A stretch of DNA of 45,952 nt from an uncultured Prevotellaceae bacterium (GTDB lineage: Bacteria; Bacteroidota; Bacteroidia; Bacteroidales; Bacteroidaceae), in NCBI GenBank assembly GCA_900321835.1, contig ONXQ01000005.1:1-45952 (forward strand), given 5' to 3'. Position 1 is the stretch's first letter. Each line of letters opens with the position of its first letter. Below the pieces are notes generated by a model, which saw nothing but the letters and a program-made list of their open reading frames with translations, made no database searches and had not been told where the DNA came from. A program made the translations under genes and the position numbers. Below, in pieces: positions 101 to 43,865 of this stretch.

Positions 101-148
101 GACGATTTTTTCCGAGCGCTCAGAAGTTTTCGTCCAAGCGCTTGCACG
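101..148. repeat. partial (2-unit) copy of the 22-bp-phased GAGCGCTC intergenic repeat family
   Basis: gacgattttttccGAGCGCTCagaagttttcgtccAAGCGCTTgcacg; cores at 114 and 136, exactly 22 bp apart. Confidence 0.8.
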
Positions 149-943: not shown

Positions 944-977
944 CTCTTGACCCTCGCCTCTTGCCCAAAATTCAGAC

Positions 978-1898: not shown

Positions 1899-1959
1899 CC
1901 ACACCCCATCGGCTCGTTCGGTTCACGTCGTTCAAGTCTCAACTTCCAACGCTCAACTC

Positions 1960-2751: not shown

Positions 2752-2764
2752 AAAAACAAACACA

Positions 2765-3352: not shown

Positions 3353-3398
3353 AAGGTCTGCGGGCCCGTCGCCGACGGTGTGCCCCGACTGTATGTTT

Positions 3399-3503
3399 GA
3401 GCGCTTGGACGAAAACGTCTGAGCGCTCAAACGTTTTCGTCTGAGCGCTCGGAAGATTTTTTCTGAGCGCTCAGACCTTTACGCGCGAGCGGGCGCACGT
3501 GGG
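3399..3503 (+). repeat. 22-bp-phased GAGCGCTC element, 4 units plus tail
   Basis: Cores start at 3399, 3421, 3443, 3465 (exact 22-bp period); tail cagacctttacgcgcgagcgggcgcacgtggg; lies between convergent genes. Confidence 0.92.
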
Positions 3504-3609
3504 AACGGACTGCACAATGCAACGCCGCCCTGCAACGACGAGACGTTGCAGGGCGGTGTTGTGCTGTTGTCCGTTCCGCACAAATCGGAGGACGGAGACG
3601 GGAAGGGGG

Positions 3610-4599
3610 TCAATAGACGCGGAAGCCGATGGTCTTGCGCACTTCGCGCAGGGTGGCGGCGCTGCTTTCACGGGCCTTTTCGGCACCCTGCCGGGCGATG
3701 CGGTCGAGCAGTTCGGTGTTGCTGCTGTACTCCTGGATGCGTTCGCGGATGGGACCCAGCGTGCGCACCATGTCTTCGGCGAGTTGTTTCTTCATGTCGC
3801 CATAGCGCAGGGTGCAGTCATTCCACTTCTCGTCGAAGTATTTGTAGGTCTCTTCGTCGGAGACAATGTGCATGAGGGTGAAAAGGTTCTGGATGACCTC
3901 GGGCTTTGGGGAATTGGGCTCCTGGGGTCCGTTGTCGGTGACAGCGCGCATCACCTTCTTGCGCACCGTCTTCTCGTCCTCATAGAGGTAGATGCAGTTG
4001 CCGTCGCTCTTGCCCATCTTTCCGCTGCCGTCGAGGCCTGGAACTTTCAGGGCCTCGCCGCCGAAGTAGAAGTTCTGCGGCTCTGGGAAGAGTTCGGTGT
4101 GGTAGATGTTGTTGAAGCGTCGGGCACATTTGCGTGCCATCTCCATGTTCTGTTCCTGGTCCTTGCCCACAGGCACCCACTTGGCGCGGTGCTGCAGAAT
4201 GTCGGCAGCCATGAGTGTGGGATAGGTGAACAGGCCTGCATTGACGTTGTCGGGCTGCTGGCGCGCTTTCTCCTTGAAGGTGGTGACGCGGCCGAGTTCG
4301 CCGATGTAGGTATTCATGTTCAGATAGAGGTAGAGTTCGATGGTTTCGGGCACGTCGCTCTGGATGTAGATGGTCGCCTTCTCGGGGTCGATTCCGCAGG
4401 CGAGGTATTCGGCCAGGATGGTGCGGGCCGAACGCTGGATGTTTTCGGGTGTGGGGTGTGTGGTGAGCGAATGCCAGTCGGCAATGAAAAAGTAGCAGTT
4501 GTATTCGTTTTGCATCTTCACGAAACTGCGCACGGCTCCGTAGTAGTTGCCGAGGTGCAGGTTGCCGGTTGGGCGAATTCCACTAAGTACGATGTCCAT
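3610..4599 (-). CDS. trpS: tryptophan--tRNA ligase
   Basis: MDIVLSGIRPTGNLHLGNYYGA (HIGH-type motif), KMGKS motif (GSGKMGKSDGN), 329 aa class-I synthetase length. Confidence 0.95.
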   Translation of the reverse strand: MDIVLSGIRPTGNLHLGNYYGAVRSFVKMQNEYNCYFFIADWHSLTTHPTPENIQRSARTILAEYLACGIDPEKATIYIQSDVPETIELYLYLNMNTYIGELGRVTTFKEKARQQPDNVNAGLFTYPTLMAADILQHRAKWVPVGKDQEQNMEMARKCARRFNNIYHTELFPEPQNFYFGGEALKVPGLDGSGKMGKSDGNCIYLYEDEKTVRKKVMRAVTDNGPQEPNSPKPEVIQNLFTLMHIVSDEETYKYFDEKWNDCTLRYGDMKKQLAEDMVRTLGPIRERIQEYSSNTELLDRIARQGAEKARESSAATLREVRKTIGFRVY

Positions 4600-4648
4600 T
4601 TATGTGCTGAAAATTGAGTATTGAAAATTTGTATTGATGAATTGCGGG

Positions 4649-7129: not shown

Positions 7130-7178
7130 AGTTATATCATTTCTGAGTGTTTGACTCGTTGATTCACACTTTATCGTG

Positions 7179-7338
7179 CAAAGTTACGGATAAGTGAGAG
7201 CAATACAAAATGAAAATCAAAAAATTTTCATTTTTATTGCCGAACGGGAGTAATTTCGGCGTAGCCAAAGTTACGGATAAGTGAGAGCAATACAAAAAGA
7301 AAATCAAAAAAAATTCATTTTTATTGCCGAACGGGAGT
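7179..7338 (-). repeat. tandem duplication (87-bp period) of a promoter-box plus AT-rich hairpin module
   Basis: Copy 1 is 7179-7251 and copy 2 is 7266-7338: caaagttacggataagtgagaGCAATACAAAAnGAAAAT...ATTTTTATTGCcgaacgggagt. On the minus strand each copy reads hairpin, then 13 nt, then TAACTTTG. Confidence 0.85.
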
Positions 7339-7366
7339 CTGCAGTCACCATTTCGATGCCACTTGC

Positions 7367-7466
7367 GAGCGCTTGGAAAAAAACGTCTGAGCGCTCAGAC
7401 GAAAACGTCCGAGCGCTCGGACGAAAATTTCTGAGCGCTCAGACCTTTACGCGCACACGCGTGGGA
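7367..7466 (+). repeat. 22-bp-phased GAGCGCTC element, 4 units plus tail
   Basis: Cores at 7367, 7389, 7411, 7433; head gccacttgcGAGCGCTTGGaaaaaaacgtc; tail cagacctttacgcgcacacgcgtggg; sits between divergently transcribed genes. Confidence 0.92.
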
Positions 7467-7579
7467 AGAAAAAAACGGTGCCGCACATTTTTCGTACTTA
7501 ACCGTACCTGTGGCTGCGTTGAAGGTACTCCCGTACGGAAAAAACCACAATAAATTTGCTTTTTTCGCTCACTTAATCG

Positions 7580-7587
7580 TAACTTTG
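7580..7587 (+). promoter_or_regulatory. -7 promoter box TAACTTTG
   Basis: 25 nt upstream of ATG 7613. Confidence 0.55.
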
Positions 7588-7612
7588 CATCGAATTTCGA
7601 AAAAAAGGGAAC

Positions 7613-9028
7613 ATGGTTCTGCTGACAGTCATACTCTACTTTGCCCTCCTGTTCGGCATTTCGCGGCTGACGGGACGGGGCACGAACGACGATTTCTTTC
7701 GGGCGGGACGACGGTCGCCGTGGCCGCTGGTGGCCTTCGGCATGGTCGGAGCGAGCATCTCGGGCGTGACGTTCGTGAGCGTGCCGGGCATGGTCACGAC
7801 GAGCGACATGACCTACCTGCAGATGTGCCTGGGATTCATTCTCGGCTATGTGGTCGTGGCCTTCGTGCTGCTGCCGCTCTACTACAAATATAACCTGACA
7901 AGCATCTATACCTACCTGGGCACGCGCCTGGGCCCCGTGAGCAGGAAGACGGGGGCGTGGTTTTTCCTGCTGTCGAAACTGACGGGGGCTGCCGCCAAGA
8001 TGTACCTGGTGTGCCTCGTGCTGCGGCAGTTTACGGGCCTGCCCTTCGTGGTCATCACGGCGGGTGCGCTCGTGCTCATCTGGCTCTACACGCGGCGTGG
8101 AGGCATCCGCACGCTGGTGTGGACCGACGCCGTGCAGACGCTGTGCCTGCTCGCTGCAGCGGCCTTGATTGTGGCCGAGGTGGCGTCGCAGTTGGGGATG
8201 TCGGCCGGCGAAGCGTGGCAGGCGGTGTGGACCGACCCGCATTCGCGCATTTTCGAGATGGACGACTGGGCAAGCCGGCAGAATTTCTGGAAACAGTTTC
8301 TGAGCGGCGTGTTCGTGGTGATTGTGATGACGGGGCTCGACCAGGACATGATGCAGAAGAACCTGACGTGCAAAAGCCTGCGCGACGGACAGAAGGACCT
8401 GTGCAGTTATGGTCTGCTGTTTCTGCCGGTCAACTTCCTGTTTCTCTCACTCGGGGTGCTGCTCCTGCTGTTCTATGCCCGGCATCCCGAACTGGCGCTG
8501 CCCGAGCGTGGCGACGACCTGCTGCCGACGGTCGTGGGCAGCGGCCTGCTGGGCGAGACGGCACTGGTGCTCTTCGTCATCGGCATCGTGGCGTCGGCCT
8601 TCAGCAGTGCCGACTCGGCGCTGACGGCGCTGACCACGAGCGTGTGTGTCGATTTGTTGCCCCGACAGGCCACAGTGCGGCAGCGCAAGTGGATTCACGC
8701 CGGAATGACGGCGGCACTGCTCGGCGTCATCCTGGCCATCGAGGCCATCGGCAGCAGCAGTGTGCTCGACCTCATCTATATGCTTGTGGGCTACACCTAC
8801 GGCCCGCTGCTCGGCCTGTTCGCCTTCGGCATGACCACCCGCCTCGGCGTACACGACCGGCTGGTGCCCTGGGTGGCCGTGGCCTCTCCCCTGCTCTGTT
8901 GGGCGTGCGACATGGCTGCGCGGCAGTGGTGGAACTACCGTTTTGGCTACGAACTGCTGCTGCTCAACGGCCTGCTCACTTTCGCGGGTCTGCTGCTCGT
9001 GAGCCGACACGAGAAAGCCCGAAGGTGA
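7613..9028 (+). CDS. sodium:solute symporter family transporter
   Basis: 471 aa, roughly 12-13 hydrophobic segments. N-terminal SSF signature region FFRAGRRSPWPLVAFGMVGASISGVTFVSVPG. Confidence 0.8.
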   Translation: MVLLTVILYFALLFGISRLTGRGTNDDFFRAGRRSPWPLVAFGMVGASISGVTFVSVPGMVTTSDMTYLQMCLGFILGYVVVAFVLLPLYYKYNLTSIYTYLGTRLGPVSRKTGAWFFLLSKLTGAAAKMYLVCLVLRQFTGLPFVVITAGALVLIWLYTRRGGIRTLVWTDAVQTLCLLAAAALIVAEVASQLGMSAGEAWQAVWTDPHSRIFEMDDWASRQNFWKQFLSGVFVVIVMTGLDQDMMQKNLTCKSLRDGQKDLCSYGLLFLPVNFLFLSLGVLLLLFYARHPELALPERGDDLLPTVVGSGLLGETALVLFVIGIVASAFSSADSALTALTTSVCVDLLPRQATVRQRKWIHAGMTAALLGVILAIEAIGSSSVLDLIYMLVGYTYGPLLGLFAFGMTTRLGVHDRLVPWVAVASPLLCWACDMAARQWWNYRFGYELLLLNGLLTFAGLLLVSRHEKARR

Positions 9029-9058
9029 CGACGCACCTTCGGGCTTTCGGTTCGTTTT
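9016..9058. terminator. stem-loop terminator shared by convergent genes
   Basis: AGCCCGAAGGTG-acgacg-CACCTTCGGGCT followed by ttcggttcgtttt; overlaps the symporter stop codon. Confidence 0.65.
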
Positions 9059-9074
9059 CAGCGGTTCTGAAGAC

Positions 9075-9572
9075 TTATTCCGGATCGGGAGTAATGGCTT
9101 CGAGAATCTTGCGTGCATCGGGATTAGCCGGGTCGGTAGATGTGCTCCAAACCATCAGGACTTCCTGCGGCAACTGGGCGATGTAGAGCAACTGATACTC
9201 ATCGCGCGTGGTGTTGTAAGCCTCCCAAGAGATGTCGCCAATGAGGAACTCTTCGGCCTTGTTCTCGGGTGTGCAGCCCGTGTTGGTCTTGCAAGCCTCG
9301 ATGTCGCTGCCTTCGCGGAACTTCAGAGCAACATTCTCGTTGCTTATCATAAGTTCCGAAACGGTGTCTTCCCAATCCCAGCCAGCAGGAACGGACACTG
9401 TGTAGTGGCCGCTGTAGCGGGAAACATCGTGTGGCTCTGCTACTTCTTCAGTAACTTCTTCTTCGGTAGCAACCGAGTCAGTGCCTTCACCCTGGTTGTT
9501 GGTGGTTCCGCTGCAAGCAGCGAACATCATTGCAGCGGCTGCAACGATGGCAAAACTGAAAATCTTTTTCAT
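9075..9572 (-). CDS. small lipoprotein, function unknown
   Basis: MKKIFSFAIVAAAAMMFAACSG lipobox; TAACTTTG box on the minus strand at 9640-9647. Confidence 0.6.
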   Translation of the reverse strand: MKKIFSFAIVAAAAMMFAACSGTTNNQGEGTDSVATEEEVTEEVAEPHDVSRYSGHYTVSVPAGWDWEDTVSELMISNENVALKFREGSDIEACKTNTGCTPENKAEEFLIGDISWEAYNTTRDEYQLLYIAQLPQEVLMVWSTSTDPANPDARKILEAITPDPE

Positions 9573-9833
9573 TCGACTTTTACTTTTAATAGATTAGGTG
9601 ATAAAAATGCGATGGGCTGTCTGTTGTCCCATACGGCGACAAAGTTATGCTTAAATTCTTGTTCTGCCAAAAATTTTAACATCTTTTTTTCGTTTTCGCC
9701 TGAAATACAGCATCAAATGCTCCGCATCAGGTGGAAACGTTCTAAAAACTTGCTAAAGTAAAAAAATCAGCAAAGATCGATAAAAAAATTGCATTTTAAC
9801 AGTTTTTTGACCATTTATCTGCAAAATTATTTT

Positions 9834-9841
9834 TAACTTTG
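9834..9841 (+). promoter_or_regulatory. -7 promoter box TAACTTTG
   Basis: 67 nt upstream of ATG 9909, inside a 330-bp AT-rich divergent intergenic region. Confidence 0.5.
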
Positions 9842-9908
9842 CAGGTGGAGAAATTCACGCTCCATCGAGACCTATTTTTTCTTATTCTTAAACTAACACC
9901 AACTACGT

Positions 9909-12875
9909 ATGAAGAAATTCTACATGATTGCTCTGCTGGCAACCCTCTTGCTGGGATTGTCGGCACAGGCGCAAATCACGGACACTCCCGTGCAACGCCC
10001 GAAGACAAAGGCCGGCGCTCCCGAAAACGGCAAGACCTATGTGATGGTCAGCGCCTACAGTCCGCTGCGCCACTACTCCAACCTCACTTCGTGGGACAAT
10101 GCCGTGTACCTCACTCAGGACATCGAGTTTGAGTTCACAGCCATCCAAAACGAGGACGACACTTGGTCGTTCACCCGCCAAGACGGCGACAAAACGCTCT
10201 ACATGATTACCCGCGAAGGCGACGGAAACTTGCGCTGGAACTCCGAAGAGCAGACCAAATGGCTGGTTGAACCCGGCGACTTCAAAGGCTTTGTCCGCCT
10301 CAAGGCCGGCGAAGGCAACGGCGAATCACAGCAAAAGTATTACGTCCATCTGAACGCCGGCGCTGAATACATCATCGTCAGTTGCCCCGGCTTCCCCTTC
10401 TACCCCGACTTCGCAGGCGGAATGATTGAAAACCCCGACATCGACGGTGAAGAAGAGTACCTCTCGGACGAAACCGGACGTTTCCTCATGGCCGACCACA
10501 CCAGCGAAAACTGGGCTTTCATCGCCAAAGAAGACTGGACTGACTTCACACAGCGCTATGAAATCTACAACAGCATCCAGAAACTTGAAGGCGACCAATA
10601 CAACATCGACGAATACATCAATGGTTTCAAGGCAACCTACAATGCCGTCGTAGCCATCTACAACGGCGATTGGGATACAGAAACCGACGGACAGACCATG
10701 CTCGACATGATCAACAACAAGATTGCCCTTTTCGAGCGCATTGAGTATGCCTACAGCCTCAATGTTGACCTCATGCTCCAAAACGCCATCAACGAGGCCC
10801 AGAATGCCTTCGACACAAAAACTTCGGCGGCAGACGTCGAAGCAGCCCTCAACGCACTGAACGACGCTATCTTCCAGTTTGAAAGCGGCGCCGGTGACTA
10901 CACGGGACTCATCAAGAACCCGTCGTTCGAAGACTTGAGTTCGCAGGGCGGCAATCAGACGAGCAACGTGGCAGGCGCTCCTGCTGGATGGAACGTTTTC
11001 ATCAACAACGTACAGGTTACAACAGCGGACGAAGTTCGCAATGCCGGCATCTACAACTGGCACGGCATCAACGACGACTGCGACGGTGAAGGCAAGGATG
11101 GCAACTACGGTTTCGGCATCTGGACAGCAGGCGTTCCTGACTACGAGATTTCGCAGACCATCGAAGGCCTGGAGTGCGGCACCTACACCGTAACTGCCGG
11201 TGTGATGGTCGGCGCCAACGGCAACGGTTCACGCCGCACGACGCAGCGCCTCTTCGGAAACCTCAACACGACGTACTTCGGCAGCAGTTCGGAGTATGAT
11301 GCAGACCTGCTCGAACTGGGCGAGGTGCGCGACTTTGCCGGACTTCCTGAACTCACCACAGACAGAACATTGCAACTCATGTCGGTGCGTGCATACGTTT
11401 ACGACGGAACGCTCACGTTTGGCCTGCGCACCGACGGCAACATCAAGGCGGCACTGCGTGAGACGAACAATCCGAACAGCGGCGACGGCTGGTTCAAACT
11501 CGACAATTTCCACATCCAGAAGGAAGGTTACTTCGGCAGCGAGGCTGCTAACGTGGCCAACACCTTCCTCAACATGTTCAAGGCCTATCAAGATCAGTAC
11601 ATGCAGAAGGAACTGACCGAGAAGATTCAAGGTCTGGTCAAGACGTACTCTGAAAAGACGGCCGACTCTCCGAAGGAGAAAATCAACGCGATGATTTCTT
11701 CGCTCTACGGACAGTTGGGTCTGCTTGACGAGGTGAAGGCTTGCATCGAGCAGTACGACCGACTGAGCAAAGCCATCGAAGACGGTTATGTGAGTCTTGA
11801 AGAGTATCTGTATAACAAGGGTGCTGACGAGTATGCCGCATTGCTTGAGGCTGCCGACCAGGGCTATCAGCAGGGTAGTTATGCTGCCGAGGAAATCGAC
11901 GGCGTGATCCAGAGGCTTAACGAGAAACTCGAAGAGGTCATCAAGGCCGGTGTGGCTGTAGGTGAGTACATCAACGTCATCAAGAACCCGTCGTTTGAGG
12001 ACCTTTCGGCTCAAGGCAACAGAAACAGCGACGGCATTGTCAACCCGCCGGCTGGCTGGACGCTGAAGTTCAACGACGTGCTTGTGACCGACGCTTCGCA
12101 GTATAGCGGTGCAGGAGCCAACGTCGGCTGGTGCGCCATCAATGGTGGTGACCCCATCAATGCAGATGACGAAAATGGCAACAACTGGACCCACCAGTAC
12201 ACCGACGGTTCTCACCTGTGGGGCATCTGGGGCGGCAACATGCCTGAAGTCGAACTTTCACAGACCATCGAAGGCCTGCCCGCAGGCACGTACATCCTGG
12301 AGTGCGACATGATTGTCGAGCACAACTGGGGCGGCTACAACGTGACCACACAGCGCATCTTCGGTAACGACTACGTGCAGATGTATGCCGACGAGGCCAC
12401 CTATGCCGAGGGTCTGAACGACACGCCCGACATGGCTCAGGCCAAGAAGGTGGACGCCAAGTACCCCGAGGCCGACATCAAGCACCTGCAGTTTGCCGGC
12501 TGGCAGTCGGTACAGTACGAAGCGGGCAACAACTTCACGTCGTGCCCCTACCCGATGGCCCTCACGTTCGGTGTTGACCACACAGGAACGGCCCACATCG
12601 GATTCCGCACCAACAACGTCAATCCGCAGGGTGTGGCCCACCACCACGACAGCGCCGGATGGTTCAAACTCGACAACTTCCGCCTCTACTACAAATCGAC
12701 GGACATCCCCGTCGGCATCAGCACGATGGAGATGAGCGGGGCCGCCCCACAGGTTGTCGGTCGCCAGTTCTTCACGGCCGACGGTCGCCAGGTGGCTCAG
12801 CCCGGTCGCGGCATCACCATTGTCCGCAACTTGATGAGCGACGGCAGCGTGAAGGCTGTGAAGGTGATCAAGTAG
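9909..12875 (+). CDS. T9SS-secreted 988-aa protein with two CBM-like (NPSFE...GWFKLDNF) domains
   Basis: Signal peptide MKKFYMIALLATLLLGLSAQAQ. Internal duplication 10911-11520 vs 11979-12690 (IKNPSFEDLS...IEGL..GTY...QR(L/I)FGN...GWFKLDNF(H/R)). C-terminal T9SS tail FFTADGRQVAQPGRGITIVRNLMSDGSVKAVKVIK. Confidence 0.75.
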   Translation: MKKFYMIALLATLLLGLSAQAQITDTPVQRPKTKAGAPENGKTYVMVSAYSPLRHYSNLTSWDNAVYLTQDIEFEFTAIQNEDDTWSFTRQDGDKTLYMITREGDGNLRWNSEEQTKWLVEPGDFKGFVRLKAGEGNGESQQKYYVHLNAGAEYIIVSCPGFPFYPDFAGGMIENPDIDGEEEYLSDETGRFLMADHTSENWAFIAKEDWTDFTQRYEIYNSIQKLEGDQYNIDEYINGFKATYNAVVAIYNGDWDTETDGQTMLDMINNKIALFERIEYAYSLNVDLMLQNAINEAQNAFDTKTSAADVEAALNALNDAIFQFESGAGDYTGLIKNPSFEDLSSQGGNQTSNVAGAPAGWNVFINNVQVTTADEVRNAGIYNWHGINDDCDGEGKDGNYGFGIWTAGVPDYEISQTIEGLECGTYTVTAGVMVGANGNGSRRTTQRLFGNLNTTYFGSSSEYDADLLELGEVRDFAGLPELTTDRTLQLMSVRAYVYDGTLTFGLRTDGNIKAALRETNNPNSGDGWFKLDNFHIQKEGYFGSEAANVANTFLNMFKAYQDQYMQKELTEKIQGLVKTYSEKTADSPKEKINAMISSLYGQLGLLDEVKACIEQYDRLSKAIEDGYVSLEEYLYNKGADEYAALLEAADQGYQQGSYAAEEIDGVIQRLNEKLEEVIKAGVAVGEYINVIKNPSFEDLSAQGNRNSDGIVNPPAGWTLKFNDVLVTDASQYSGAGANVGWCAINGGDPINADDENGNNWTHQYTDGSHLWGIWGGNMPEVELSQTIEGLPAGTYILECDMIVEHNWGGYNVTTQRIFGNDYVQMYADEATYAEGLNDTPDMAQAKKVDAKYPEADIKHLQFAGWQSVQYEAGNNFTSCPYPMALTFGVDHTGTAHIGFRTNNVNPQGVAHHHDSAGWFKLDNFRLYYKSTDIPVGISTMEMSGAAPQVVGRQFFTADGRQVAQPGRGITIVRNLMSDGSVKAVKVIK

Positions 12876-18055: not shown

Positions 18056-18140
18056 GAGCGCTCGGACGAAAACGTCTGAGCGCTCAGAGATTTTCTTCCG
18101 AGCGCTCAGACGTTTTTTTCCAAGCGCACGGACTTCAAAA
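18056..18140 (-). repeat. 22-bp-phased GAGCGCTC element, reverse orientation, 4 units
   Basis: Cores at 18056, 18078, 18100, 18122 (the last is degenerate, AAGCGCAC). The head unit ...tttttttccAAGCGC is the reverse complement of GAGCGCTTGGaaaaaaa. Confidence 0.9.
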
Positions 18141-20414: not shown

Positions 20415-20458
20415 ACACCGCAGTGCAACGGAATTTGCACTGCGGTGTATTTTTATTT
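20415..20458 (+). terminator. rho-independent terminator
   Basis: 14-bp perfect stem ACACCGCAGTGCAA-cggaat-TTGCACTGCGGTGT followed by atttttattt. Confidence 0.85.
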
Positions 20459-20461
20459 CGT

Positions 20462-20548
20462 CTGTGGACGAAATTTATTTCAACTGCGGACGAAATTATT
20501 TTCGTCTGCGGACGAAATTTTTTTCAACTGCGGACGAAATTTGGGGGC
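20462..20548. repeat. 4-unit tandem array, 22-bp period, CTGCGGACGAAAT variant
   Basis: Units start at 20462, 20484, 20506, 20528: ctg(t/c)ggacgaaatt(t/a)(a/t)tttc(aa/gt). Confidence 0.9.
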
Positions 20549-23764: not shown

Positions 23765-23870
23765 CTTCGCGCGCACGCGTAAAGGTCTGAGCGCTCGGAA
23801 AGAAACGTCTGAGCGCTCGGAAGAAATCGTCTGAGCGCTCAGACGAAAATTTCCAAGCGCTCGGAAAGGC
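23765..23870 (-). repeat. 22-bp-phased GAGCGCTC element, reverse orientation, 4 units plus tail
   Basis: Cores at 23789, 23811, 23833, 23855. The reverse complement is nearly identical to the 14024-14105 copy apart from one extra unit. Confidence 0.92.
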
Positions 23871-26679: not shown

Positions 26680-26950
26680 CGAACAAAAAAGGCAACAGCG
26701 GTTGACCTGACACGCGAACAATATTCATACCCTTAAGCCGGGATAAAGGATCGATCGGGATACTCATCAAATTACAATCGAAAACCGAGAACGCTTTGCA
26801 TATCAATGGCGGGCCACGCCCTCCCTCGGGAAGGTAACCTTGAGTCGGTGGATTACAAAGATATGCGAGCACTCAAATCTTATCTGCTCGGAGTTTCATC
26901 ACATCTCCTCCCGGCTTTTCCCATAAAGGAGGCAGCACCGCTGCCTCCTT
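26680..26950 (+). ncRNA. candidate structured non-coding transcript upstream of tRNA-Ser (class not recognised)
   Basis: TATCTTTG -7 box at 26667-26674; no credible ORF; 9-bp long-range pairing AAGCCGGGA (26735-26743) with TCCCGGCTT (26909-26917); perfect 10-bp terminal hairpin AAGGAGGCAG-caccg-CTGCCTCCTT (26926-26950). Confidence 0.3.
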
Positions 26951-26986: not shown

Positions 26987-27073
26987 GGAAAGTTGCCGGA
27001 GTGGTCGATCGGGCCGCACTCGAAATGCGGTGACCGGGTAACTGGTCCGGGGGTTCGAATCCCTCACTTTCCG
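26987..27073 (+). tRNA. tRNA-Ser (anticodon CGA), long variable arm
   Basis: Acceptor GGAAAGT/ACTTTCC, D-arm GCCGGAGTGGTCGATCGGGC, anticodon stem-loop CCGCA-CTCGAAA-TGCGG, variable arm TGACCGGGTAACTGGTCCGG, T-arm GGGGTTCGAATCCC. Confidence 0.9.
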
Positions 27074-29502: not shown

Positions 29503-29566
29503 CCCACCCCACGCACCTGCTGAAGCCACCACTCGGGTCCGCCATCAGGACTTGCTTTCGACTTTT

Positions 29567-29631
29567 AAGTGCTTAAAAAAAAGTTTTAAGTGCATAAAAA
29601 TACATTTTCAAGTGCTTAGAAATTCATTTCA
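29567..29631. repeat. 3-unit tandem array, 21/22-bp period, AAGTGCTT variant
   Basis: Units at 29567, 29588, 29610: AAGTGCTTaaaaaaaagtttt / AAGTGCATaaaaatacattttc / AAGTGCTTagaaattcatttc. Confidence 0.85.
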
Positions 29632-29647
29632 ACCAAGACATAGAGAC

Positions 29648-31374
29648 ATGAAGACAGCAGTGATACAAGTGACAGAAGCCGGCGCACAGGTGGCGCAGGT
29701 GGTCTGTCAGGAAACAGGCGGAATGCTCGTTCCCCGCTCCGACCTCGGCCGGCACTGGGCCGACGTGGAGGCCGTCGTGTTCATCGGCGCAATGGGCATC
29801 TGTGTCCGCACCATTGCGCCCTTGCTGACGGACAAGCACACCGACCCCGCCGTCGTGTGCATCAGCAGCGACGGCAGCCATGTGATTTCCGTCGTTTCGG
29901 GGCACGTCGGCGGTGCCAACCAACTGGCCGGACAACTGGCCGCTGCCCTGCCCGGGGCCGAGGCCGTGGTCACGACCCAGAGTGACACACAAGGACTCTG
30001 GGCCCTCGACACGCTGGCACAGCGCTATGGCTGGACTGCCGAGGTGGAGGGTGCGACGATGAATGACGCCATCTTCCGCTTTGTCGGCAAAGAGCCTGTG
30101 GCACTGCTGATTGAGACGTGCGATGCAGGCAGCGACTATCTGCAGCGCACCTGTCCGCCACACGTTCGCCGCATCCAGTCGGAGAGCGAAGTGGATACAG
30201 CCAGCGACCGTCTGCTCATTGCCGTCACTCCGCGCCAGATTCACAGCAGCGTTCCCGTGCTCCAGTACGTTCCGAAGACGCTCTGCCTGGGCATCGGGCT
30301 GGCCCATCAGGCAGAACCTGCCGAGGCGATTCTCCGTCAAATCATGCAGTGTGTCGCCGACAGCGGATGGCTGTGGCAGGGTGTGCGCACCGTTGCGACC
30401 ATCGACGTGAAACGCGACGAACCCGTCGTGAAACTGCTGCAAAGTCAAGGCTTCGACGTTCAGTTCTACACGGCAGACCAACTCGCCGCTGTGCCTGTGC
30501 CCACGCCCAGCGATGTCGTCGCCAGCCATGTGGGGACACCGAGTGTGAGTGAGGCCGCAGCCATTCTTGCAGCCGACGGAGGCCCGCTGGTCGTCAGCAA
30601 GAAAAAAGGTGAAAAATTCACCGTTGCCGTGGCCTCTTTGCCGCTGATGCAGGAGGTGGGCAGTGGGCATGGCTTCATCGAAATTGTCGGAGCCGGCCCC
30701 GGCGATCCCGACCTCATCTCCGTGCGCGGCCGTCGAATGCTCGAACGTGCCGACCTCATCCTCTACGCAGGTAGTCTGGTACCACGCGAACTCACGCTGT
30801 GCGCCAAACCAGAGGCCGTGGTGCGTTCCTCCGCCTCGATGTCGCTGGAGGAACAGTGTGCGCTGATGAAGGAATATTACGACCGAGGCTGCTTCATCGT
30901 CCGTCTGCACACGGGCGACCCCTGCATCTTCGGTGCCATCCAGGAGCAGATGGCCTACTTCGACGCCCACCACATGCACTACCACATCACACCATACCCG
31001 AACGCTGTCAGACCATCATCCTGACGCGCGGCGAAGGCCGTACGCCCATGCCCGAACGCGAAAAACTCCATCTGCTGGCCCGCAGCCGCTCGACCATGTG
31101 CATCTTCCTCAGTGCTGCCATCGTCGATGACGTGCAGCAGCAACTCCTCGCCGAATACCCGCCTGAGACGCCTGTCGCCGCCTGCTACCATCTGACGTGG
31201 CCCGACCAGCGCATCTATCGGGGTCAACTCAAAGACCTGGCCAGCATCGTCCACGACCATCATCTCACACTGACCACCATGCTCGTGGTCGGCGATGCGA
31301 TTGACAACCGCCAGGGCCTCTCCGAACTCTATTCGGCACACTTTTCACACTTGTTCAGAAAAGCCAGCGAATGA
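29648..31374 (+). pseudogene. cbiGF: cbiG-cbiF fusion: cobalt-precorrin-5A hydrolase / precorrin-4 C11-methyltransferase, disrupted in the cbiF part
   Basis: CbiG part looks intact (ATG 29648, MKTAVIQVTEAG...). CbiF starts with IEIVGAGPGDPDLISVRG...RLHTGDPCIFGAIQEQ...MHYHITP, then stops. The continuation IPERCQTIILTRGEGRTPMPEREKL...TMLVVGD is in the frame of 30799. The PGVSSF...AAAA segment expected between them is absent (junction about 30992-30997). Confidence 0.7.
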
Positions 31375-33242
31375 TACTCCTCTTTGGTGGCACGACCGAA
31401 GGACGCAAGGCTGCAGAGGTGCTCGAAGAGGCCGGCAGCACGTTCTACTACTCGACCAAGACGGGCGAGCAGGACATCGCCCTGCACCACGGGCTGCGCA
31501 TCGACGGAGCGATGGATGCCGAGGCGATGCAACGTTTTTGTCAGGAACAGGAAATCCGCCTCATCATCGACGCCGCCCATCCCTTTGCGCAGCAGTTGCA
31601 CCAGACCATTGCCGACGTCGCCCAGCGCCTACGCCTTCCCGTCGTCCGCTACGAACGCATCTTTCCGCCGCGCGACGAACACTTCATCTGGATTGACCGC
31701 TACGAAGATTTGCGCACGCTGCGGCCTGCCACCGTTCTTGCCACAACCGGCGTACAGAGCATTTCGCACCTGAAACCCCTCGAGACCGCAGGCTTCCGCT
31801 TCCTGTACCGCATTTTGCCCCGCGAGAGTTCTGTGGCACTGGCAAAAGCGCAGGGTGCTGCCGACGACCAACTTTGCTACTATCACGACGACGAGGACGA
31901 AGTCGCCCTGCTCCGCAGGCTCCGTCCCGACATCCTCCTGGTGAAGGAAAGCGGTGAAAGCGGTGGTTTCAACAAAAAAACGCAAGCCGCTCGTTCACTG
32001 GGTATTACGGTTGTCGCGCTGAAACGCCCTGCAACGCCTTTCACCTTCCACTGCGTCAACGGTCCGCACGGACTTCGCCGCCGTGTCGAGCAGTTGCTAC
32101 CCGACTTTTTTTCCCTGCACAGCGGCCTGACCACAGGCACGTGTGCCACCGCAGCCGCCGTAGCAGCAACGATTCGTCTGACGCGGGGTGAAACACCCTC
32201 CCAGGTGCCTGTCATCCTGCCCGACGGCGAAACCATCTCCGTCGGCGTCGGCTATGGCAACGACTATGCTTTCTGCATCAAGGACGGCGGCGACGACCCC
32301 GACGTGACCGACGGGATTGAAATAAGGGCAAAGGTGGAGGCACAAGCCCCCCTCCACCTCCCCCCCGAAGGGGGAGGGCCTCAAAAACAGCCTGTAGATA
32401 AGGAATCCTCCCCACTCGGGGGGGAGTTAGAGGGGGGCCAGGTCTTTATCACTGGTGGCGAAGGCATCGGAACCATCACCCTCCCCGGCTTTGACTATCC
32501 CCCTGGTTCGCCAGCCATCAACCGTGTACCCCGGGAGATGATAATGACTAACTTAAAGGCACTCCCCTTATGTGGGAGAGATGGAGGGGGGCCGTTCACC
32601 ATCACCCTCTCCGTCCCCAACGGTGCAGAGATAGCCCGCCGCACGTTCAATCCGCGCCTGGGCATCGAGGGCGGCATCAGCATCATTGGGGTGAGCGGCA
32701 TTACGAAACCCTTCAGCGAAGAGGCCTTCGTCGCCTCCATCCGCAAATGTATGGAAGTGGCAAAGGCCAGTATGCCCGCCGAAGGCTGTCTGGTCATCAA
32801 CAGCGGCGCGAAGAGCGAGGCCTACGTCAAGGCGCGTTTTCCCGAACTGCCTGCACCCTGTTTCGTGCAGTATGGCAACTACATCGGTGCCACACTCCGC
32901 ATCGCGGCCGAACTCGCCATTCCCCGTGTCACGCTTTGCGTGATGCTGGGCAAGGCCGTCAAACTCGCTGCCGGCAACCTCGACACCCACAGCCGCCGCA
33001 CGACAATGGACGTCGGCTTTGTCCTCTCCATGCTCACCGAGGCAGGGTGCAGCGACGACGTCATCGCCGCAGCCCACGGTCTCACGCTGGCCCGCGACCT
33101 CTGGACCCTCCTGCCGCCCGACCGTCTCGAACCTTTTGCCCGCGTCGTCATCCGCCATTGTCACCACCATTGCGACCCGGTTTTGCCCGACGGCCAACTC
33201 GACATCCTGCTCATCGACGAGGAAGGACATATATACGCCTGA
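31371..33242 (+). CDS. cbiJD: cbiJ-cbiD fusion: cobalt-precorrin-6A reductase / cobalt-precorrin-5B C1-methyltransferase
   Basis: CbiJ: MILLFGGTTEGR, IIDAAHPFA, LVKESGESGG. CbiD: SGLTTGTCATAAAVAA, KDGGDDPDVT, PAINRVPREMI, FNPRLGIEGGISIIGVSGI. ATGA overlap with the preceding ORF. The frame is open but contains the inserted repeats listed below. Confidence 0.8.
   Translation: MILLFGGTTEGRKAAEVLEEAGSTFYYSTKTGEQDIALHHGLRIDGAMDAEAMQRFCQEQEIRLIIDAAHPFAQQLHQTIADVAQRLRLPVVRYERIFPPRDEHFIWIDRYEDLRTLRPATVLATTGVQSISHLKPLETAGFRFLYRILPRESSVALAKAQGAADDQLCYYHDDEDEVALLRRLRPDILLVKESGESGGFNKKTQAARSLGITVVALKRPATPFTFHCVNGPHGLRRRVEQLLPDFFSLHSGLTTGTCATAAAVAATIRLTRGETPSQVPVILPDGETISVGVGYGNDYAFCIKDGGDDPDVTDGIEIRAKVEAQAPLHLPPEGGGPQKQPVDKESSPLGGELEGGQVFITGGEGIGTITLPGFDYPPGSPAINRVPREMIMTNLKALPLCGRDGGGPFTITLSVPNGAEIARRTFNPRLGIEGGISIIGVSGITKPFSEEAFVASIRKCMEVAKASMPAEGCLVINSGAKSEAYVKARFPELPAPCFVQYGNYIGATLRIAAELAIPRVTLCVMLGKAVKLAAGNLDTHSRRTTMDVGFVLSMLTEAGCSDDVIAAAHGLTLARDLWTLLPPDRLEPFARVVIRHCHHHCDPVLPDGQLDILLIDEEGHIYA
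32347..32439 (+). repeat. in-frame GC-rich hairpin insertion inside cbiD
   Basis: ccCCTCCacCTCCCCCccgaaGGGGGAGGgcc tcaaaaacagcctgtagataaggaat CCTCCCCactcgGGGGGAGttagaggggggcc; encodes APLHLPPEGGGPQKQPVDKESSPLGGELEGG. The AT-rich centre is atypical for this CDS. Confidence 0.6.
32560..32593 (+). repeat. second copy of the CTCCCC...GGGAG...GAGGGGGGCC motif inside cbiD
   Basis: cACTCCCCttatgtGGGAGagatggaggggggcc resembles 32407-32439. It is preceded by rare-codon AT-rich DNA (atgataatgactaacttaaag). Confidence 0.45.
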
Positions 33243-33350
33243 GCGCTCAGAAATTTTCGTCTGAGCGCTCAGACGTTTTCCTCCGAGCGCTCAGACGTTT
33301 TCTTCCGAGCGCTCAGACGTTTTTTTCCAAGCGCTCAGATGTATATAGAA
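33238..33350 (-). repeat. 22-bp-phased GAGCGCTC element, reverse orientation, 5 units
   Basis: Cores at 33241, 33263, 33285, 33307, 33329. The first core overlaps the cbiJD stop codon (ccTGAgcgctc). Head ...tttttttccAAGCGCTCagatgtatatag. Confidence 0.92.
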
Positions 33351-33454: not shown

Positions 33455-33650
33455 AACAACGGTAGTGCCGCGCCGTCACGACGGCGGTGCGAAGCACGCA
33501 AGGGAATGCGGTGTGAATCCGCAGCTGTACCTGCAACTGTAATCCTCTTCTTTTAAGGCTGTCCATCCATGCCACTGACCCTCTGGGACGGGAAGGCGGA
33601 CAGACCGGGGAAAGCCAGGAGACCTGCCGTAAGAAACGAATCTCTTCCAA
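33455..33650 (+). promoter_or_regulatory. cobalamin (B12) riboswitch
   Basis: Conserved core AAGGGAATGCGGTGTGAATCCGCAGCTGTACCTGCAACTGTAA, GCCACTG (33571-33577) and B12 box AGCCAGGAGACCTGCC (33613-33628); about 50 nt upstream of the TBDT start. Confidence 0.9.
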
Positions 33651-33699: not shown

Positions 33700-35835
33700 A
33701 TGAGGATACGAAGAGTCGCCTTAGGGCTGGCATTGCTATGCTGTGCCGCTATGGGTCGCAGTCAGGACGTATTGCTCAGCGACACACTGGAAACGGTGGT
33801 CGTCACGGGCACCGGCACGAAGCACCTGCTGAAGGACGCTCCCGTCGAGACGGAGGTCATCAGCGGACGCACACTGCGTCAGTATGGCGGACAAAGTCTC
33901 GAGGACATCCTGGGAAGCCTGTCGGCCTCGTTCGCCTTCAACGAGGGCGACATGGGCAGCCAGATGCAACTGAACGGCCTCGGCAACTCGTACATTCTCG
34001 TACTCATCGACGGAAAGCGCCTGACGGGCGACGTGGGCGGACAGAACGACCTTTCGCTCATCGACCCCCACAACATCGAGCGCATCGAAATCGTGAAGGG
34101 TGCATCGAGCGCCCTCTACGGCAGCGACGCCATCGCCGGCGTGGTCAACATCATCACCCGCCGCCACGAAGGAGGCATCATGCTGGAGAACTCGACACGC
34201 TACGGCTCGTACAACGACGTCCGCCAGCACAACAGCGTCGGCCTGGCATGGGGAAAGTGGAAGAGCCTCACGGGGTTTCAACTCCAGCATTCGGACGGAT
34301 GGCAGAACACATCGGTCGAAAACACACCGAGCAGCGCCACACCCGTCACCGACTCGCGCAGCATGACGGTCAACCGCCACACAAGTTGGCAACTCTCGGA
34401 GCAACTCACCTTCGCTCCCAGCGAAGACCTTGAGTTCTACCTCGCCGGCACGCTGCACAGAAAGGGCATCTACCGTCCGAAGGGAAAATATCCCAAATAC
34501 GACGTCAAGACCTTTGACCTCAAGTATGAAAATGCCTCTGCAGCCCTGGGCGGACAGTGGCGGACAGAACGCGGCGACCTGCTGACCCTCGACATCGACT
34601 GGGCGCAACACGCCTACTACCACGCCTTCACTTCGACGACGCTGACCGAGGGCTTCGATGCCGACGGACTTCTGATTCTGGACTTCCCCTATTTCGCCGG
34701 ACAACGTCTGCTGCAGAGCAACCAGCAACGCACCACCGCCCAACTGAAGGGCGTGTTCAACTTCCCAAATCACAGACTGTCGGCCGGCCTCGAGGCGCGT
34801 TTCGACCACCTGAAGGCTCCGACCAGCCTTGCCTCACGCACGGCATCCGACAACACCGAGGCGCTGTACGTGCAGGACGAATGGTCACAGTTGCACTGGC
34901 TTTGGCTCACAGGCGGCCTGCGCCTGTGCCGCAACGAAGGCTTTGGCTGGCGGCTGACGCCCAAACTCTCGGCGATGGCCCGACTGGGCAACGTGCGTCT
35001 GCGTGCTACGTGGAGTCAGGGTTTCAAGACCCCTACGCTGAAAGAGATGAACTACCGCTACATCCGCGAGATGACGAACATCGTGATGTACCTGGGCAAC
35101 GAAAATTTGAAACCGCAGACGTCGAACTATTTCTCGCTTGGAGGCGAACTGACGCACCACGGCTTCAACTTCACAGTCACAGCCTACGTGAACCGCCTGG
35201 ACAACATGATTGCACTGGCGACGGTTTCCACCAGCGCTGCACCTGCAGCCTACCGCGAGCAGTACGGCGAAATGCTGAACAAGGTGCGCCGCTACGAAAA
35301 CATGGAGGATGCACGGACGATGGGCGTGGACATCAGCGCAAGTTATACGCGAAAGGAGTGGACAGCCGGTGCCAGTTACAGTTACCTCGACACGAAGGCA
35401 CACGTCTATGACTCGGACGCGGAACGGCTCGAGCGCGTTGTCATTGACGGCATGGCGCGTCACAAGGGCAATGTTTTTGTGACGTGGGAACATCGTTTCT
35501 CTCCCTCCTATGCACTGGGGCTCGGGCTGTACGGCCGTATGTCGAGCCGGCGCTTCTATGCCCTCGACGGCAACGGTCGTCCGTTCCAGATCTGGCGGTT
35601 GACGACGTCGCACAACCTGGGGCACAGCCGCACGATGACCTACCGGCTGGAGGCGGGCATCGACAACATCTTCAACCATGTGGACCGCACGCCTCACGGC
35701 CTGCATCTGGGCACGACCTCGCCGGGCACGACTGTGTTTGCCACGCTGACCGTGCGTTTCAAGACCAACAAGTCACTTAAATTTTCCAATAAACATAAGT
35801 CTAACTCTAAAAATCAAAACGATGAAGAAGATTAA
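33700..35835 (+). CDS. TonB-dependent receptor (BtuB-like, riboswitch-controlled)
   Basis: Signal peptide; TonB-box-like ETVVVTGT; plug motifs LNGLGNSYILVLIDGKR, IERIEIVKGASSALYGSDAIAGVVNIIT; barrel ends ...TVFATLTVRF followed by a 24-aa extension. Confidence 0.85.
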   Translation: MRIRRVALGLALLCCAAMGRSQDVLLSDTLETVVVTGTGTKHLLKDAPVETEVISGRTLRQYGGQSLEDILGSLSASFAFNEGDMGSQMQLNGLGNSYILVLIDGKRLTGDVGGQNDLSLIDPHNIERIEIVKGASSALYGSDAIAGVVNIITRRHEGGIMLENSTRYGSYNDVRQHNSVGLAWGKWKSLTGFQLQHSDGWQNTSVENTPSSATPVTDSRSMTVNRHTSWQLSEQLTFAPSEDLEFYLAGTLHRKGIYRPKGKYPKYDVKTFDLKYENASAALGGQWRTERGDLLTLDIDWAQHAYYHAFTSTTLTEGFDADGLLILDFPYFAGQRLLQSNQQRTTAQLKGVFNFPNHRLSAGLEARFDHLKAPTSLASRTASDNTEALYVQDEWSQLHWLWLTGGLRLCRNEGFGWRLTPKLSAMARLGNVRLRATWSQGFKTPTLKEMNYRYIREMTNIVMYLGNENLKPQTSNYFSLGGELTHHGFNFTVTAYVNRLDNMIALATVSTSAAPAAYREQYGEMLNKVRRYENMEDARTMGVDISASYTRKEWTAGASYSYLDTKAHVYDSDAERLERVVIDGMARHKGNVFVTWEHRFSPSYALGLGLYGRMSSRRFYALDGNGRPFQIWRLTTSHNLGHSRTMTYRLEAGIDNIFNHVDRTPHGLHLGTTSPGTTVFATLTVRFKTNKSLKFSNKHKSNSKNQNDEED

Positions 35836-36944: not shown

Positions 36945-37045
36945 GCGCGTATATATACGTCTGAGCGCTCGGACGAAACGCTCTGAGCGCTCAGACGAAA
37001 ACTTCCGAGCGCTCAGACGTTTTTTTCCAAGCGCTCGGAAACCGA
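36945..37045 (-). repeat. 22-bp-phased GAGCGCTC element, reverse orientation, 4 units
   Basis: Cores at 36963, 36985, 37007, 37029; left end is the palindrome CGTATATATACG (36948-36959); head ...tttttttccAAGCGCTCgg. Confidence 0.92.
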
Positions 37046-39738: not shown

Positions 39739-40755
39739 ATGCTCTACGGACACGGCGACGACACCTTCCGCTTCCCCCACCTGCGTGCCAACTTCAGTTC
39801 GAACATCTGCACAGAGGCCGACCTTGCCCCCCTCAAGGCGCATCTGGCCACACGGCTCTCCGCCATCGAGAACTATCCGGAGCCGGCAGCCGACTCGCTC
39901 GCTGCCTGCATCGCCCGGCTGCACGGCATCCAGCCCGACGAGGTGCTGGTGACCAACGGCGCCACCGATGCCATCTACCTCATTGCACAGGCTTTTGCCA
40001 CGGATGGTACCTATTTCTCGACCGACGAACCCACTTTCAGCGAATATGCCGACGCCTGCCTTTTGTTCGGATTGAAACCTCAGACAGACGCGGACTCTTC
40101 TGCAGCCGTTCGCTGGCTGTGCAACCCGAACAACCCCGACGGCCGCATCTACACGTCCGAGCAAGTGCGACGGGAGGCACAGCGCAGCACGTGGCTCGTC
40201 GTCGATCAGTCGTACGAAGACTACACCGCAGCCCCTCTGCTCACCGCTCGCGAGGCGCTCGGTGTGCCCAACCTGCTGCTGCTCCATTCGCTCACCAAGA
40301 GTTACGCCGTACCGGGGCTGCGCATCGGCTATGTCACTGCGCCGGCTCCGCTCATCGCCCGTCTCAAGTCCGTCAGCCGTCCGTGGGCCGTCAATGCCCT
40401 GGCGGTCGAGGCCGGGAAATGGCTGCTCAGCCACGATGTACGTGCCGTGCCCGACCTCGATGCCCTGTTGGCAGAGACCCAGCGGCTGGCCAACGCACTT
40501 TCGGAGGTGCCTCACCTCCACGTCAGCCCCACCGCCACGACCTTCATGCTCGTCTGCTGCGACACGTTCACGGCGGCCCAACTGAAGGAGCGGCTGGCCT
40601 CGGAACACGGTCTGCTCATCCGCGATGCCTCCAATTTCCCCACGCTCACTCCCCATCACTTCCGTGTGGCAACCCAGCGGCCCGACCAGAACGATGCACT
40701 TGTCGCTGCCCTGCGCACCCTTCTCTCCCCGTCTGCAGACGAACGAAAGTTCTGA
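39739..40755 (+). CDS. cobD: threonine-phosphate decarboxylase (class I/II aminotransferase fold)
   Basis: MLYGHGDD, NFSSN, YPEP, CNPNNPDG, HSLTKSYAVPGLRIGY (PLP lysine motif). Confidence 0.85.
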   Translation: MLYGHGDDTFRFPHLRANFSSNICTEADLAPLKAHLATRLSAIENYPEPAADSLAACIARLHGIQPDEVLVTNGATDAIYLIAQAFATDGTYFSTDEPTFSEYADACLLFGLKPQTDADSSAAVRWLCNPNNPDGRIYTSEQVRREAQRSTWLVVDQSYEDYTAAPLLTAREALGVPNLLLLHSLTKSYAVPGLRIGYVTAPAPLIARLKSVSRPWAVNALAVEAGKWLLSHDVRAVPDLDALLAETQRLANALSEVPHLHVSPTATTFMLVCCDTFTAAQLKERLASEHGLLIRDASNFPTLTPHHFRVATQRPDQNDALVAALRTLLSPSADERKF

Positions 40756-40820
40756 GTGCTTGAAAAAAAAGTTTTAAGTGCTTGAAAATTTACTTTTACG
40801 TGCTTGAAAGTTTGTTTTTA
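40754..40820. repeat. 3-unit tandem array, 22-bp period, (G/A)AGTGCTT variant
   Basis: Units at 40754, 40776, 40798: GAGTGCTTgaaaaaaaagtttt / AAGTGCTTgaaaatttactttt / ACGTGCTTgaaagtttgttttt; the first unit overlaps the cobD stop. Confidence 0.88.
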
Positions 40821-40833
40821 CCTACTTGTTTCG

Positions 40834-43772: not shown

Positions 43773-43865
43773 GAGCGCTTGGAAAAAAACGTCCGAGCGC
43801 TCGGACGTTTTCGTCTGAGCGCTCAGAGATTTTTTTCTGAGCGCTCAGCCCTATATACAGACTTT
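43773..43865 (+). repeat. 22-bp-phased GAGCGCTC element, 4 units
   Basis: Cores at 43773, 43795, 43817, 43839. The head gccacttgtccGAGCGCTTGGaaaaaaacgtc matches the 7367 copy. Tail cagccctatatacagac. Lies between convergent cobS and cbiB. Confidence 0.92.

Follow-up and report, generated by a model that had tools for sequence, protein, structure and literature searches.

How palindromic repeats come to lie in frame inside the gene of an enzyme is the question raised by the cbiJ-cbiD fusion gene of an uncultured Prevotellaceae bacterium, found in a 45,952-nt stretch of contig ONXQ01000005.1 (the whole stretch is called here the window). The CbiD part of this gene contains two GC-rich inserts, a doublet and a single arm. 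We estimate at about three in four the probability that they are non-autonomous remnants, lacking an open reading frame (ORF), of small selfish elements of Prevotellaceae/Bacteroidales. They are assigned to a family of elements carrying a DUF559 gene because the same arms flank DUF559 genes as inverted terminal repeats, a role that was not visible from the window to the original prediction made on this DNA.

Insert 1 comprises 93 nt (32346-32438), or 31 codons without a stop, separating DDPDVTDGIEIRAKVEAQ (EIRAKVEAQ block) from QVFITGGEGIG, and its in-frame peptide is APLHLPPEGGGPQKQPVDKESSPLGGELEGG. This bears out the original prediction of GC-rich hairpin repeats in frame within cbiD. The prediction of two hairpins around an AT-rich centre was right in that each arm has its hairpin and the spacer is AT-rich, but the structure is one inverted-repeat doublet and not two independent hairpins. 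The arms are 32 nt each, 88% complementary, and each has its own 8-bp hairpin (32357-64 / 32370-77 in the left arm). The reverse complement of the left arm fits a covariance model built from 20 aligned arms with 58.1 bits (E 2.8e-12), and its sequence is of the type found in left arms adjoining DUF559 ORFs; the right arm scores 49.3 bits (E 5.3e-10). The spacer holds the position taken by the DUF559 ORF in full-length elements. Insert 1 thus keeps both arms, with 28 nt in place of the ORF, and insert 2 keeps one hairpin and one tail.

Insert 2, described beforehand as a third, similar motif, has the orientation of the insert 1 right arm and 75% identity to it, scores 47.6 bits (E 1.5e-9) and is read in frame as LPLCGRDGGGP (11 residues). 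The AT-rich, rare-codon DNA beside it, also mentioned in the original prediction, encodes the conserved PREMIxxNLK motif and lies outside any element. The hairpin pattern has eight matches in the window vs. 1.6 expected, all of them inside the three arm copies, and the covariance model gave no further arm in the 46-kb window. The 99-nt stretch 32343-32441, which holds insert 1, forms one long hairpin, with folding energies of -67.4 kcal/mol as RNA (z -6.9) and -33.9 kcal/mol as DNA (z -5.8). The same three arms are present in an independent assembly (L022), the protein of which is 97% identical, and the inserts are therefore no assembly artefact.

The protein consists of a CbiJ/CobK part (precorrin-6x reductase; PF02571, aa 2-223, E 4.9e-49) and a CbiD part (PF01888, aa 250-535, E 1.1e-77, 261 bits vs. 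a cut-off of 25), both identified with Pfam. PDB 1SR8, the only solved CbiD, is the top match of the CbiD half by sequence and by fold, and all the CbiD residues that are invariant in a 51-sequence alignment are retained. In the AlphaFold model of the CbiD domain (mean pLDDT, the predicted local distance difference test, 78), insert 1 corresponds to domain residues 96-126, with pLDDT <50 at 98-125, between strands 87-94 and 128-132. Insert 2 corresponds to residues 168-178, between helix 155-166 and strand 179-184. Both inserts, when mapped as the original prediction had proposed, occupy predicted loop positions of low confidence between regular secondary-structure elements. We infer that they are translated and harmless and that CbiD is still active.

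Full-length elements with the same arms were found elsewhere. In three of the matches of the genome scan described below (L003, L009 and L017), in-frame insertions of ~140 aa have the arm motif as their left arm and close with an inverted right arm; they contain a PF04480 DUF559 domain (Pfam, E 8e-35 and 4e-33). A protein search with the DUF559 insertion yielded 2,405 relatives, the best of which are stand-alone ~125-aa proteins of Prevotellaceae and Bacteroidaceae named 'endonuclease domain-containing protein'. PF04480 was matched by full-length relatives, as distinct from the window, with E 1e-26 to 1e-35 (Pfam). The stand-alone DUF559 genes of L027 and L034 are wedged between operon genes and have inverted GC-rich arms on both sides, one of the two arm pairs being of the window's type. 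The DUF559 proteins P0172, P0174, P0183, P0192, P0201, and P0215 (165-187 aa) have N-termini made of PAEHSTPL(S/A)(L/F)GEGxGGEA repeats, and these repeats are the translation of GC-rich arm arrays that precede the nuclease ORF and that gene callers have taken into the protein.

A metagenome scan with a DUF559 alignment gave 80 loci, most of which have inverted GC-rich arms 0-100 nt outside the ORF. These loci were searched with the arm covariance model, the expected orientation being a left arm upstream on the minus strand and a right arm downstream on the plus strand. The model had 68 matches: 46 lie <=150 nt from the DUF559 ORF in the expected inverted orientation, one is adjacent in the wrong orientation and 21 are elsewhere. 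At least one window-type arm is present in 30/80 loci and both arms in 15/80. The full element is ~430-570 nt long, with an ORF of ~120 codons for a DUF559 (Vsr-like, PD-(D/E)XK) endonuclease. Its left end has (T/A)AGCCCCCCTC, 3 nt and a 7-8-bp C-run/G-run hairpin; a middle part of 370-505 nt holds the ORF; and the right end has the inverted hairpin, 3 nt and GAGGGGGGCT. The right arm that follows the DUF559 ORF in a BirA-like gene (L066) is near-identical to insert 2 of the window.

Filled, reduced and empty states of one site were found in ABC-F genes, L017 and L003 being full and L011 empty. L014 represents the reduced state, with a 45-nt palindrome in which a single hairpin stands between the left tail and the right tail. 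This palindrome is the product expected from a deletion between the two hairpins of a full element, which provides a plausible route from the full element to a single arm.

The DUF559 profile matches PDB 3HRL, an endonuclease-like protein of N. gonorrhoeae (E 3e-28), and PDB 3R3P, the catalytic domain of the group I intron homing endonuclease I-Bth0305I (E 9e-8). A survey of the PD-(D/E)XK superfamily placed Vsr, DUF559, and the I-Bth0305I homing endonuclease in one clade (PMC3424549). A selfish DNA-cutting role therefore has a precedent in this clade, and the DUF559 proteins of the elements are putative enzymes of this kind.

Full elements reside in frame in host genes. The frame stays open for at least 80 codons past the DUF559 domain on at least one side in 34/80 loci and on both sides in 17/80. 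Pfam identified the split hosts as LeuRS, MetRS, IleRS, RecG, MetH, MnmE, a BirA-type ligase, DegT aminotransferase, NAD-dependent epimerase, and GH31 hydrolase, and some host sites recur across independent metagenomes (LeuRS four times, RecG three times, MetH twice, and the epimerase six times). The junctions are arm-encoded and Pro/Gly-rich, reading APL.../...GGxxGA. Only DUF559/MTES_1575 was found by Pfam in the inserted segments, with no Hint/intein domain, and the junction residues are not intein-like. Being built of C and G runs, the consensus arm has no stop in 5/6 frames, and 50-60% Pro+Gly is coded in all frames. With few stops and Pro/Gly coding, the repeat is tolerable in a protein loop in any frame or orientation, so that an insertion whose nucleotide count is divisible by three does no more than supply the protein with a flexible loop rich in Pro and Gly.

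Dispersal of the arm was followed by an exact scan with the pattern CTCCCCNNNNGNGGGNGAGNTNGAGGGGGGC (23 specified bases) in 185,579 genomes, one genome per species. It gave 17 matches, every one in a different sequence context, against ~0.02 expected for uniform composition by our own arithmetic. Sixteen of them are in Prevotellaceae, Alloprevotella, Bacteroidaceae or Bacteroidales metagenome-assembled genomes (MAGs), and one is in an Anaerolineae MAG. A compositional artefact is disfavoured, because it would favour high-GC phyla and not one order. Arms were found in intergenic DNA and, for 11 of the 17 matches, inside long open frames. The hosts, according to Pfam, include ABC-F ATPases, CCA-adding enzyme, FeoB, a PrmC-like methyltransferase, MntP, ketoacyl synthase (KAS), pseudouridine synthase, and a DUF5107 protein. 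The arm peptides in these ORFs, APL(H/Q)LPPxGG, LPLRGGxGGG, and SPxGGELEGG, are the same as in CbiD. The search for other copies of the motif, proposed with the original prediction, was thus answered by unrelated genes and intergenic DNA of many Prevotellaceae/Bacteroidales genomes, with none elsewhere in the 46-kb window. The exact pattern was not found in viral contigs. Rfam has no family that matches the arms, either in ten loci with elements (E <= 1) or in the window (gathering scores), and the 'Pedo-repair' motif, considered as a lead, is absent from the Rfam results on the arms.

The arm family can be very dense locally. An arg-operon contig (L043) has at least eight arms in 3.7 kb around argG, argC and a DUF559 gene (60-140, 900-1090, 2260-2500, 2918-2946, and 3695-3725), and its tandem doublets share a 17-20-nt spacer. 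The sole match outside Bacteroidales, in the Anaerolineae MAG (L007, 3540-3630), is a tight doublet of a left arm, 10 nt and a right arm, and may be due to a wider host range or to mis-binning of the contig.

Orthologs of the host protein were compared using the 120 best homologs, which are Prevotella-type CbiJ-CbiD fusions of 541-685 aa, except for one 369-aa CbiD-only protein. Differences of length and content are confined to exactly two places, one following EIRAxV (site 1) and one following PREMIxxNLxxI (site 2). At site 1, only ~5 residues are present in the shortest orthologs (578 aa), in agreement with the claim that the conserved blocks are normally a few residues apart. Site 1 is empty in L021 and L024, and it is occupied by a single arm in L023. 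In L019, a decayed doublet of the window type occupies site 1, and site 2 has a single arm. Site 2 holds a single arm in L021 and a complete single palindrome with both tails in L020; reading the latter as an arm of opposite orientation was rejected, as the complete palindrome fits better. P0004 and P0006 are 96.6% identical with the inserts masked, yet unlike at both sites, and P0003 and P0005 are 93.8% identical on the same basis and unlike at site 1; the sites therefore change much faster than the surrounding gene. The alignment proposed earlier as a check thus revealed no fixed-length shared loop, both sites varying even between 94-97% identical proteins. No full-length element was found in cbiD among the 120 best homologs, and the longest of them (650-685 aa) owe their extra length to other repeats.

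Other repeat families are present at the cbiD loops in L018, L025, L119, and L120. L018 has a different inverted repeat at site 1 and the window's arm at site 2, and L025 has at site 1 a single arm of another GC-rich family. Genes of the Prevotella copri type have two further unrelated inverted repeats at site 1, one of which folds at -65 kcal/mol. This repeated occupation by at least four repeat families suggests that the CbiD loops are unusually permissive or that there is some site preference.

The inverted repeat at site 1 of L120 (within 8623-10461) has arms of ~40 nt and an RNA folding energy of -65 kcal/mol; its in-frame peptide is ESRRYEGTGARGYENTPASDKSRAPVPPCLRTPA, which makes it a further translated palindrome in the same CbiD loop. 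In the cbiJ-cbiD genes of the P. copri type (L119, 10001-11893; L120, 8623-10461), site 2 consists of an array of the heptamer CTCTCAC, with PLTSHLS as its reading, and the CbiJ-CbiD linker of L119 is a 21-nt tandem repeat read as SKLNAQC. Homologs differ in length by steps of 7 aa (616/623/630); therefore, only changes by three heptamers keep the frame, and slippage by a single unit would shift it. Site 2 of L024 (1397-1447) is an AT-rich CAATTGT/AATTTGTC tandem repeat, a similar array directly adjoins a GC-rich arm in L006 (1540-1590), and heptamer arrays flank arms in L001 (GGGGCAA) and L008 (TAGAGTG). Between cbiG and cbiJ-cbiD, the P. copri-type contig L119 has a block (542-9254) with genes for a ResIII helicase, an N6/N4 methyltransferase, a DpnII/MboI-type endonuclease, RhuM, and T5orf172. 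The block resembles a restriction-modification or defence island lodged within the cbi operon.

A mechanism can be proposed in which the DUF559 nuclease would recognise the arms, as hairpin or cruciform, or the empty alleles, and the element would be copied after the cut, through homing-like break repair or through hairpin-directed transposition. Deletion between the two palindromic hairpins would give single arms, and less complete deletion would give doublets such as insert 1; both would be unable to move on their own. An insertion by a multiple of three would persist wherever the host protein offers a permissive surface loop. CbiD has two such loops, taken repeatedly by different repeat families.

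Several observations weigh against descent of the cbiD inserts from DUF559 elements. No DUF559 gene was found in the 46-kb window by tblastn. The three arms cluster in one gene, with none elsewhere in the 46 kb, which is more clustering than sparse random scatter predicts. Insert 2 alone folds no better than shuffled sequence (z -0.2). Neither a target-site duplication nor a common target motif was found at the filled and empty ABC-F sites and in 16 element flanks. The spacer of insert 1 is dissimilar to the inner ends of full elements, so that its descent by internal deletion is assumed, not traced; it is also dissimilar to the spacers of the L043 doublets. Identity of DUF559 sequences is 54-66% within and 48-53% between arm types, in small samples, and such weak co-variation leaves a cognate relationship of enzyme and ends conjectural.

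According to the main rival, the arms constitute an independent repeat of the REP (repetitive extragenic palindrome) or MITE (miniature inverted-repeat transposable element) type, moved by another enzyme, e.g., a REP-associated (RAYT)/IS200-type tyrosine transposase, and DUF559 genes home into arm doublets, which are their target and not their ends. The abundance of ORF-less doublets and single arms would fit this, as would the true homing endonuclease within the DUF559 clade, the missing target-site duplication and the weak co-variation. We consider it unlikely, since the combination of arms and ORF, unchanged in geometry and orientation, recurs at many unrelated loci, and each arm of a full element has a complete hairpin, whereas insertion into the loop of one palindrome would leave a different arrangement. 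Moreover, no transposase gene was seen beside the arms in the loci read, which were not screened systematically. A selected cis-acting RNA or DNA structure of the cbi operon, such as a translation pause, an mRNA stabiliser or an internal attenuator, for which lineages acquired different sequences with the same role, would account for the very stable hairpin (-67 kcal/mol) and for the unrelated inverted repeats at the same site in L119 and L120. It is made very improbable by the close orthologs L021 and L024, which have no hairpin at site 1, by the same arms in dozens of unrelated genes and in intergenic DNA, and by the lack of a family match in Rfam.

Two further explanations appear scarcely credible. 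The segments might be lineage-specific low-complexity loops, made in place by slippage and point mutation, with a resemblance that is compositional; they are indeed GC-rich and Pro/Gly-rich, and simple tandem repeats occupy the same loops in L024 and L119. Such an origin is hard to reconcile with a 23-base pattern that occurs in unrelated genes of 16 Bacteroidales genomes vs. ~0.02 matches predicted, with arm-model E-values of 1e-9 to 1e-12 and arms 88% complementary over 32 nt, and with the near-identity of the L066 arm after the DUF559 ORF to the site-2 copy. The inserts might also have inactivated cbiD, leaving a decaying pseudogene, as 31 + 11 foreign residues lie within the methyltransferase domain. 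Against this, the 623-codon frame is intact with the invariant CbiD residues kept, the 97% identical relative retains the same inserts and has its differences elsewhere in the gene, and the inserts are in predicted loops.

The positions of the inserts, of their host gene and of the other repeats are given in Table 1. The intergenic DNA of the source genome is populated by a 22-nt-period repeat different from the GC-rich arm. Arrays of 22-nt units in 2-4.5 copies have the palindromic core CGTCTGAGCGCTCAGACG and are unrelated to the GC-rich arms; one of them adjoins the stop codon of cbiD on its downstream side. In appearance they are REP-type repeats with a CGTC tag (cf. PMC3733652), and the arrays with other AT-rich cores may be sister families. 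A further repeat (7179-7338) has an 87-nt unit in 1.8 copies with 95% identity, and the region 7001-8000 has ~51% G+C, below its surroundings. A cobalamin riboswitch (RF00174, 81 bits) was found directly downstream of cbiD at 33465-33645, preceding a TonB-dependent receptor ORF (33700-35835). A Bacteroidales-1 (6S-like) RNA (26739-26922, 133 bits) is followed by a tRNA (26987-27073), which supports the assignment of the window to Bacteroidales.

Table 1. Positions of the cbiD inserts, the host gene and other repeats in the window.
Feature	Position	Strand	Description
Insert 1	32345-32439	+	ORF-less doublet (MITE/REPIN-like): left arm, spacer, right arm; inverted repeat
Insert 1, left arm	32345-32378	-	tail AGCCCCCCTCCA, then hairpin CCTCCCCC-CCGAA-GGGGGAGG
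Insert 1, spacer	32379-32406	+	AT-rich, CCTCAAAAACAGCCTGTAGATAAGGAAT, 28-29 nt
Insert 1, right arm	32407-32439	+	hairpin CCTCCCC-ACTC-GGGGGGGAG, TTA, tail GAGGGGGGCC
Insert 2	32560-32593	+	single arm: hairpin CTCCCC-TTATGT-GGGAG, tail GAGGGGGGCC, left tail missing
cbiJ-cbiD host gene	31371-33242	+	623 aa, frame intact; ORF list and Pfam
CGTCTGAGCGCTCAGACG-core array	99-142		
CGTCTGAGCGCTCAGACG-core array	3416-3480		
CGTCTGAGCGCTCAGACG-core array	7367-7444		
CGTCTGAGCGCTCAGACG-core array	18078-18127		
CGTCTGAGCGCTCAGACG-core array	23781-23868		
CGTCTGAGCGCTCAGACG-core array	33241-33339		
CGTCTGAGCGCTCAGACG-core array	36960-37019		
CGTCTGAGCGCTCAGACG-core array	43790-43848		
22-nt-period array	20452-20542		other AT-rich palindromic core (TTTCGTCTGCGGACGAAA, TTTTAAGTGCTTAAAA)
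22-nt-period array	29563-29629		other AT-rich palindromic core (TTTCGTCTGCGGACGAAA, TTTTAAGTGCTTAAAA)
22-nt-period array	40746-40828		other AT-rich palindromic core (TTTCGTCTGCGGACGAAA, TTTTAAGTGCTTAAAA)

A wider claim, advanced tentatively and with the balance tilting slightly against it, is that the full elements form an undescribed class of bacterial selfish element, in which a Vsr-like (DUF559) gene lies within C-run/G-run palindromic arms that, having few stops and Pro/Gly coding in every frame, let the whole element sit in frame in essential proteins (aminoacyl-tRNA synthetases, RecG, MetH, MnmE, and ABC-F) without being spliced, the nuclease becomes a domain of the host protein, and deletion between the arms leaves permanent loops. 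No description of arm-bracketed DUF559 elements was found in full texts, a weak negative given their partial coverage. If such a class exists, the element would be a steady source of protein loop variation in Bacteroidota. If full elements are translated within LeuRS, RecG, MetH, and other hosts, they would parasitise essential genes in the manner of inteins yet without any need for splicing, and would account for much of the length variation in Prevotella proteins.

For in-frame palindromic repeats such as Rickettsia palindromic elements (RPEs), a source and an enzyme have, to our knowledge, so far been lacking. The arms, which behave alike, are tied to a candidate enzyme gene with the same ends, and the origin and spread of such repeats become testable in culturable gut and rumen Bacteroidota. 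In practical terms, gene calling and domain annotation can be led astray by arm segments, which can also disrupt assemblies and make the proteins of metagenomes seem more diverse than they are.

RPEs are short dispersed palindromes that are kept in frame in protein genes and translated as extra loops, and we know of no enzyme gene associated with them. The original prediction likened the cbiD repeats to RPEs, and the likeness holds for their behaviour: the arms are palindromic and dispersed, lie in frame within ORFs and are consistent with an intact product. Such repeats were supposed to be unusual outside Rickettsia, but Di Nocera et al. (PMC3733652) have already reported intragenic, in-frame repeats of the REP type there. 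The arm has no CGTC tag, unlike RPE-4 and RPE-6, which are placed among the CGTC-tagged REPs (PMC3733652). The cbiD arms also differ from RPEs in the phylum of their host, which belongs to Bacteroidales, and in being C/G-run hairpins that bracket a DUF559 nuclease gene in the full-length form.

REPs, REPINs, and REPtrons resemble the arms in having a 30-35-nt stem-loop with an unpaired tail, in occurring as singles and inverted doublets, and in having intragenic copies (cf. PMC3733652). The REPtron likewise has a presumed enzyme gene between two inverted units, with singlets and doublets scattered. The arms differ from REPs by the absence of the GTAG/CGTC tag, their ends being AGCCCCCCTC / GAGGGGGGCT in the 20 aligned arms, and by the large share of full DUF559 elements in frame inside host genes. 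The flanked gene was PF04480 DUF559 in every case read, and not an IS200/IS605-type Y1 transposase as in the REPtron, for which no systematic screen was made. MITEs are comparable in the inverted 32-nt ends (88% complementary) around a short core of 28-29 nt, in small ORF-less copies that share their ends with ORF-carrying copies, and in being multi-copy in some genomes. Unlike MITEs, the arms have no detected target-site duplication, and their partner, the DUF559 ORF, is no known or demonstrated transposase.

Comparable endonucleases are I-Bth0305I (3R3P; Vsr-like, EDxHD) and those of the 'fractured gene' type (PMC2677866), which have a homologous catalytic domain and are likewise selfish genes lodged in conserved genes. 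Endonucleases of these types reside in group I introns or between the halves of split inteins and are spliced out, whereas no intron or intein was seen at the DUF559 elements, which have inverted arms of their own. The elements share with inteins the in-frame, endonuclease-bearing insertion at fixed sites of essential proteins (aminoacyl-tRNA synthetases, RecG, and MetH). Unlike an intein, the DUF559 insertion has no Hint/splicing domain and no Cys/Ser/Thr and His-Asn at its junctions, and it is apparently retained in the protein.

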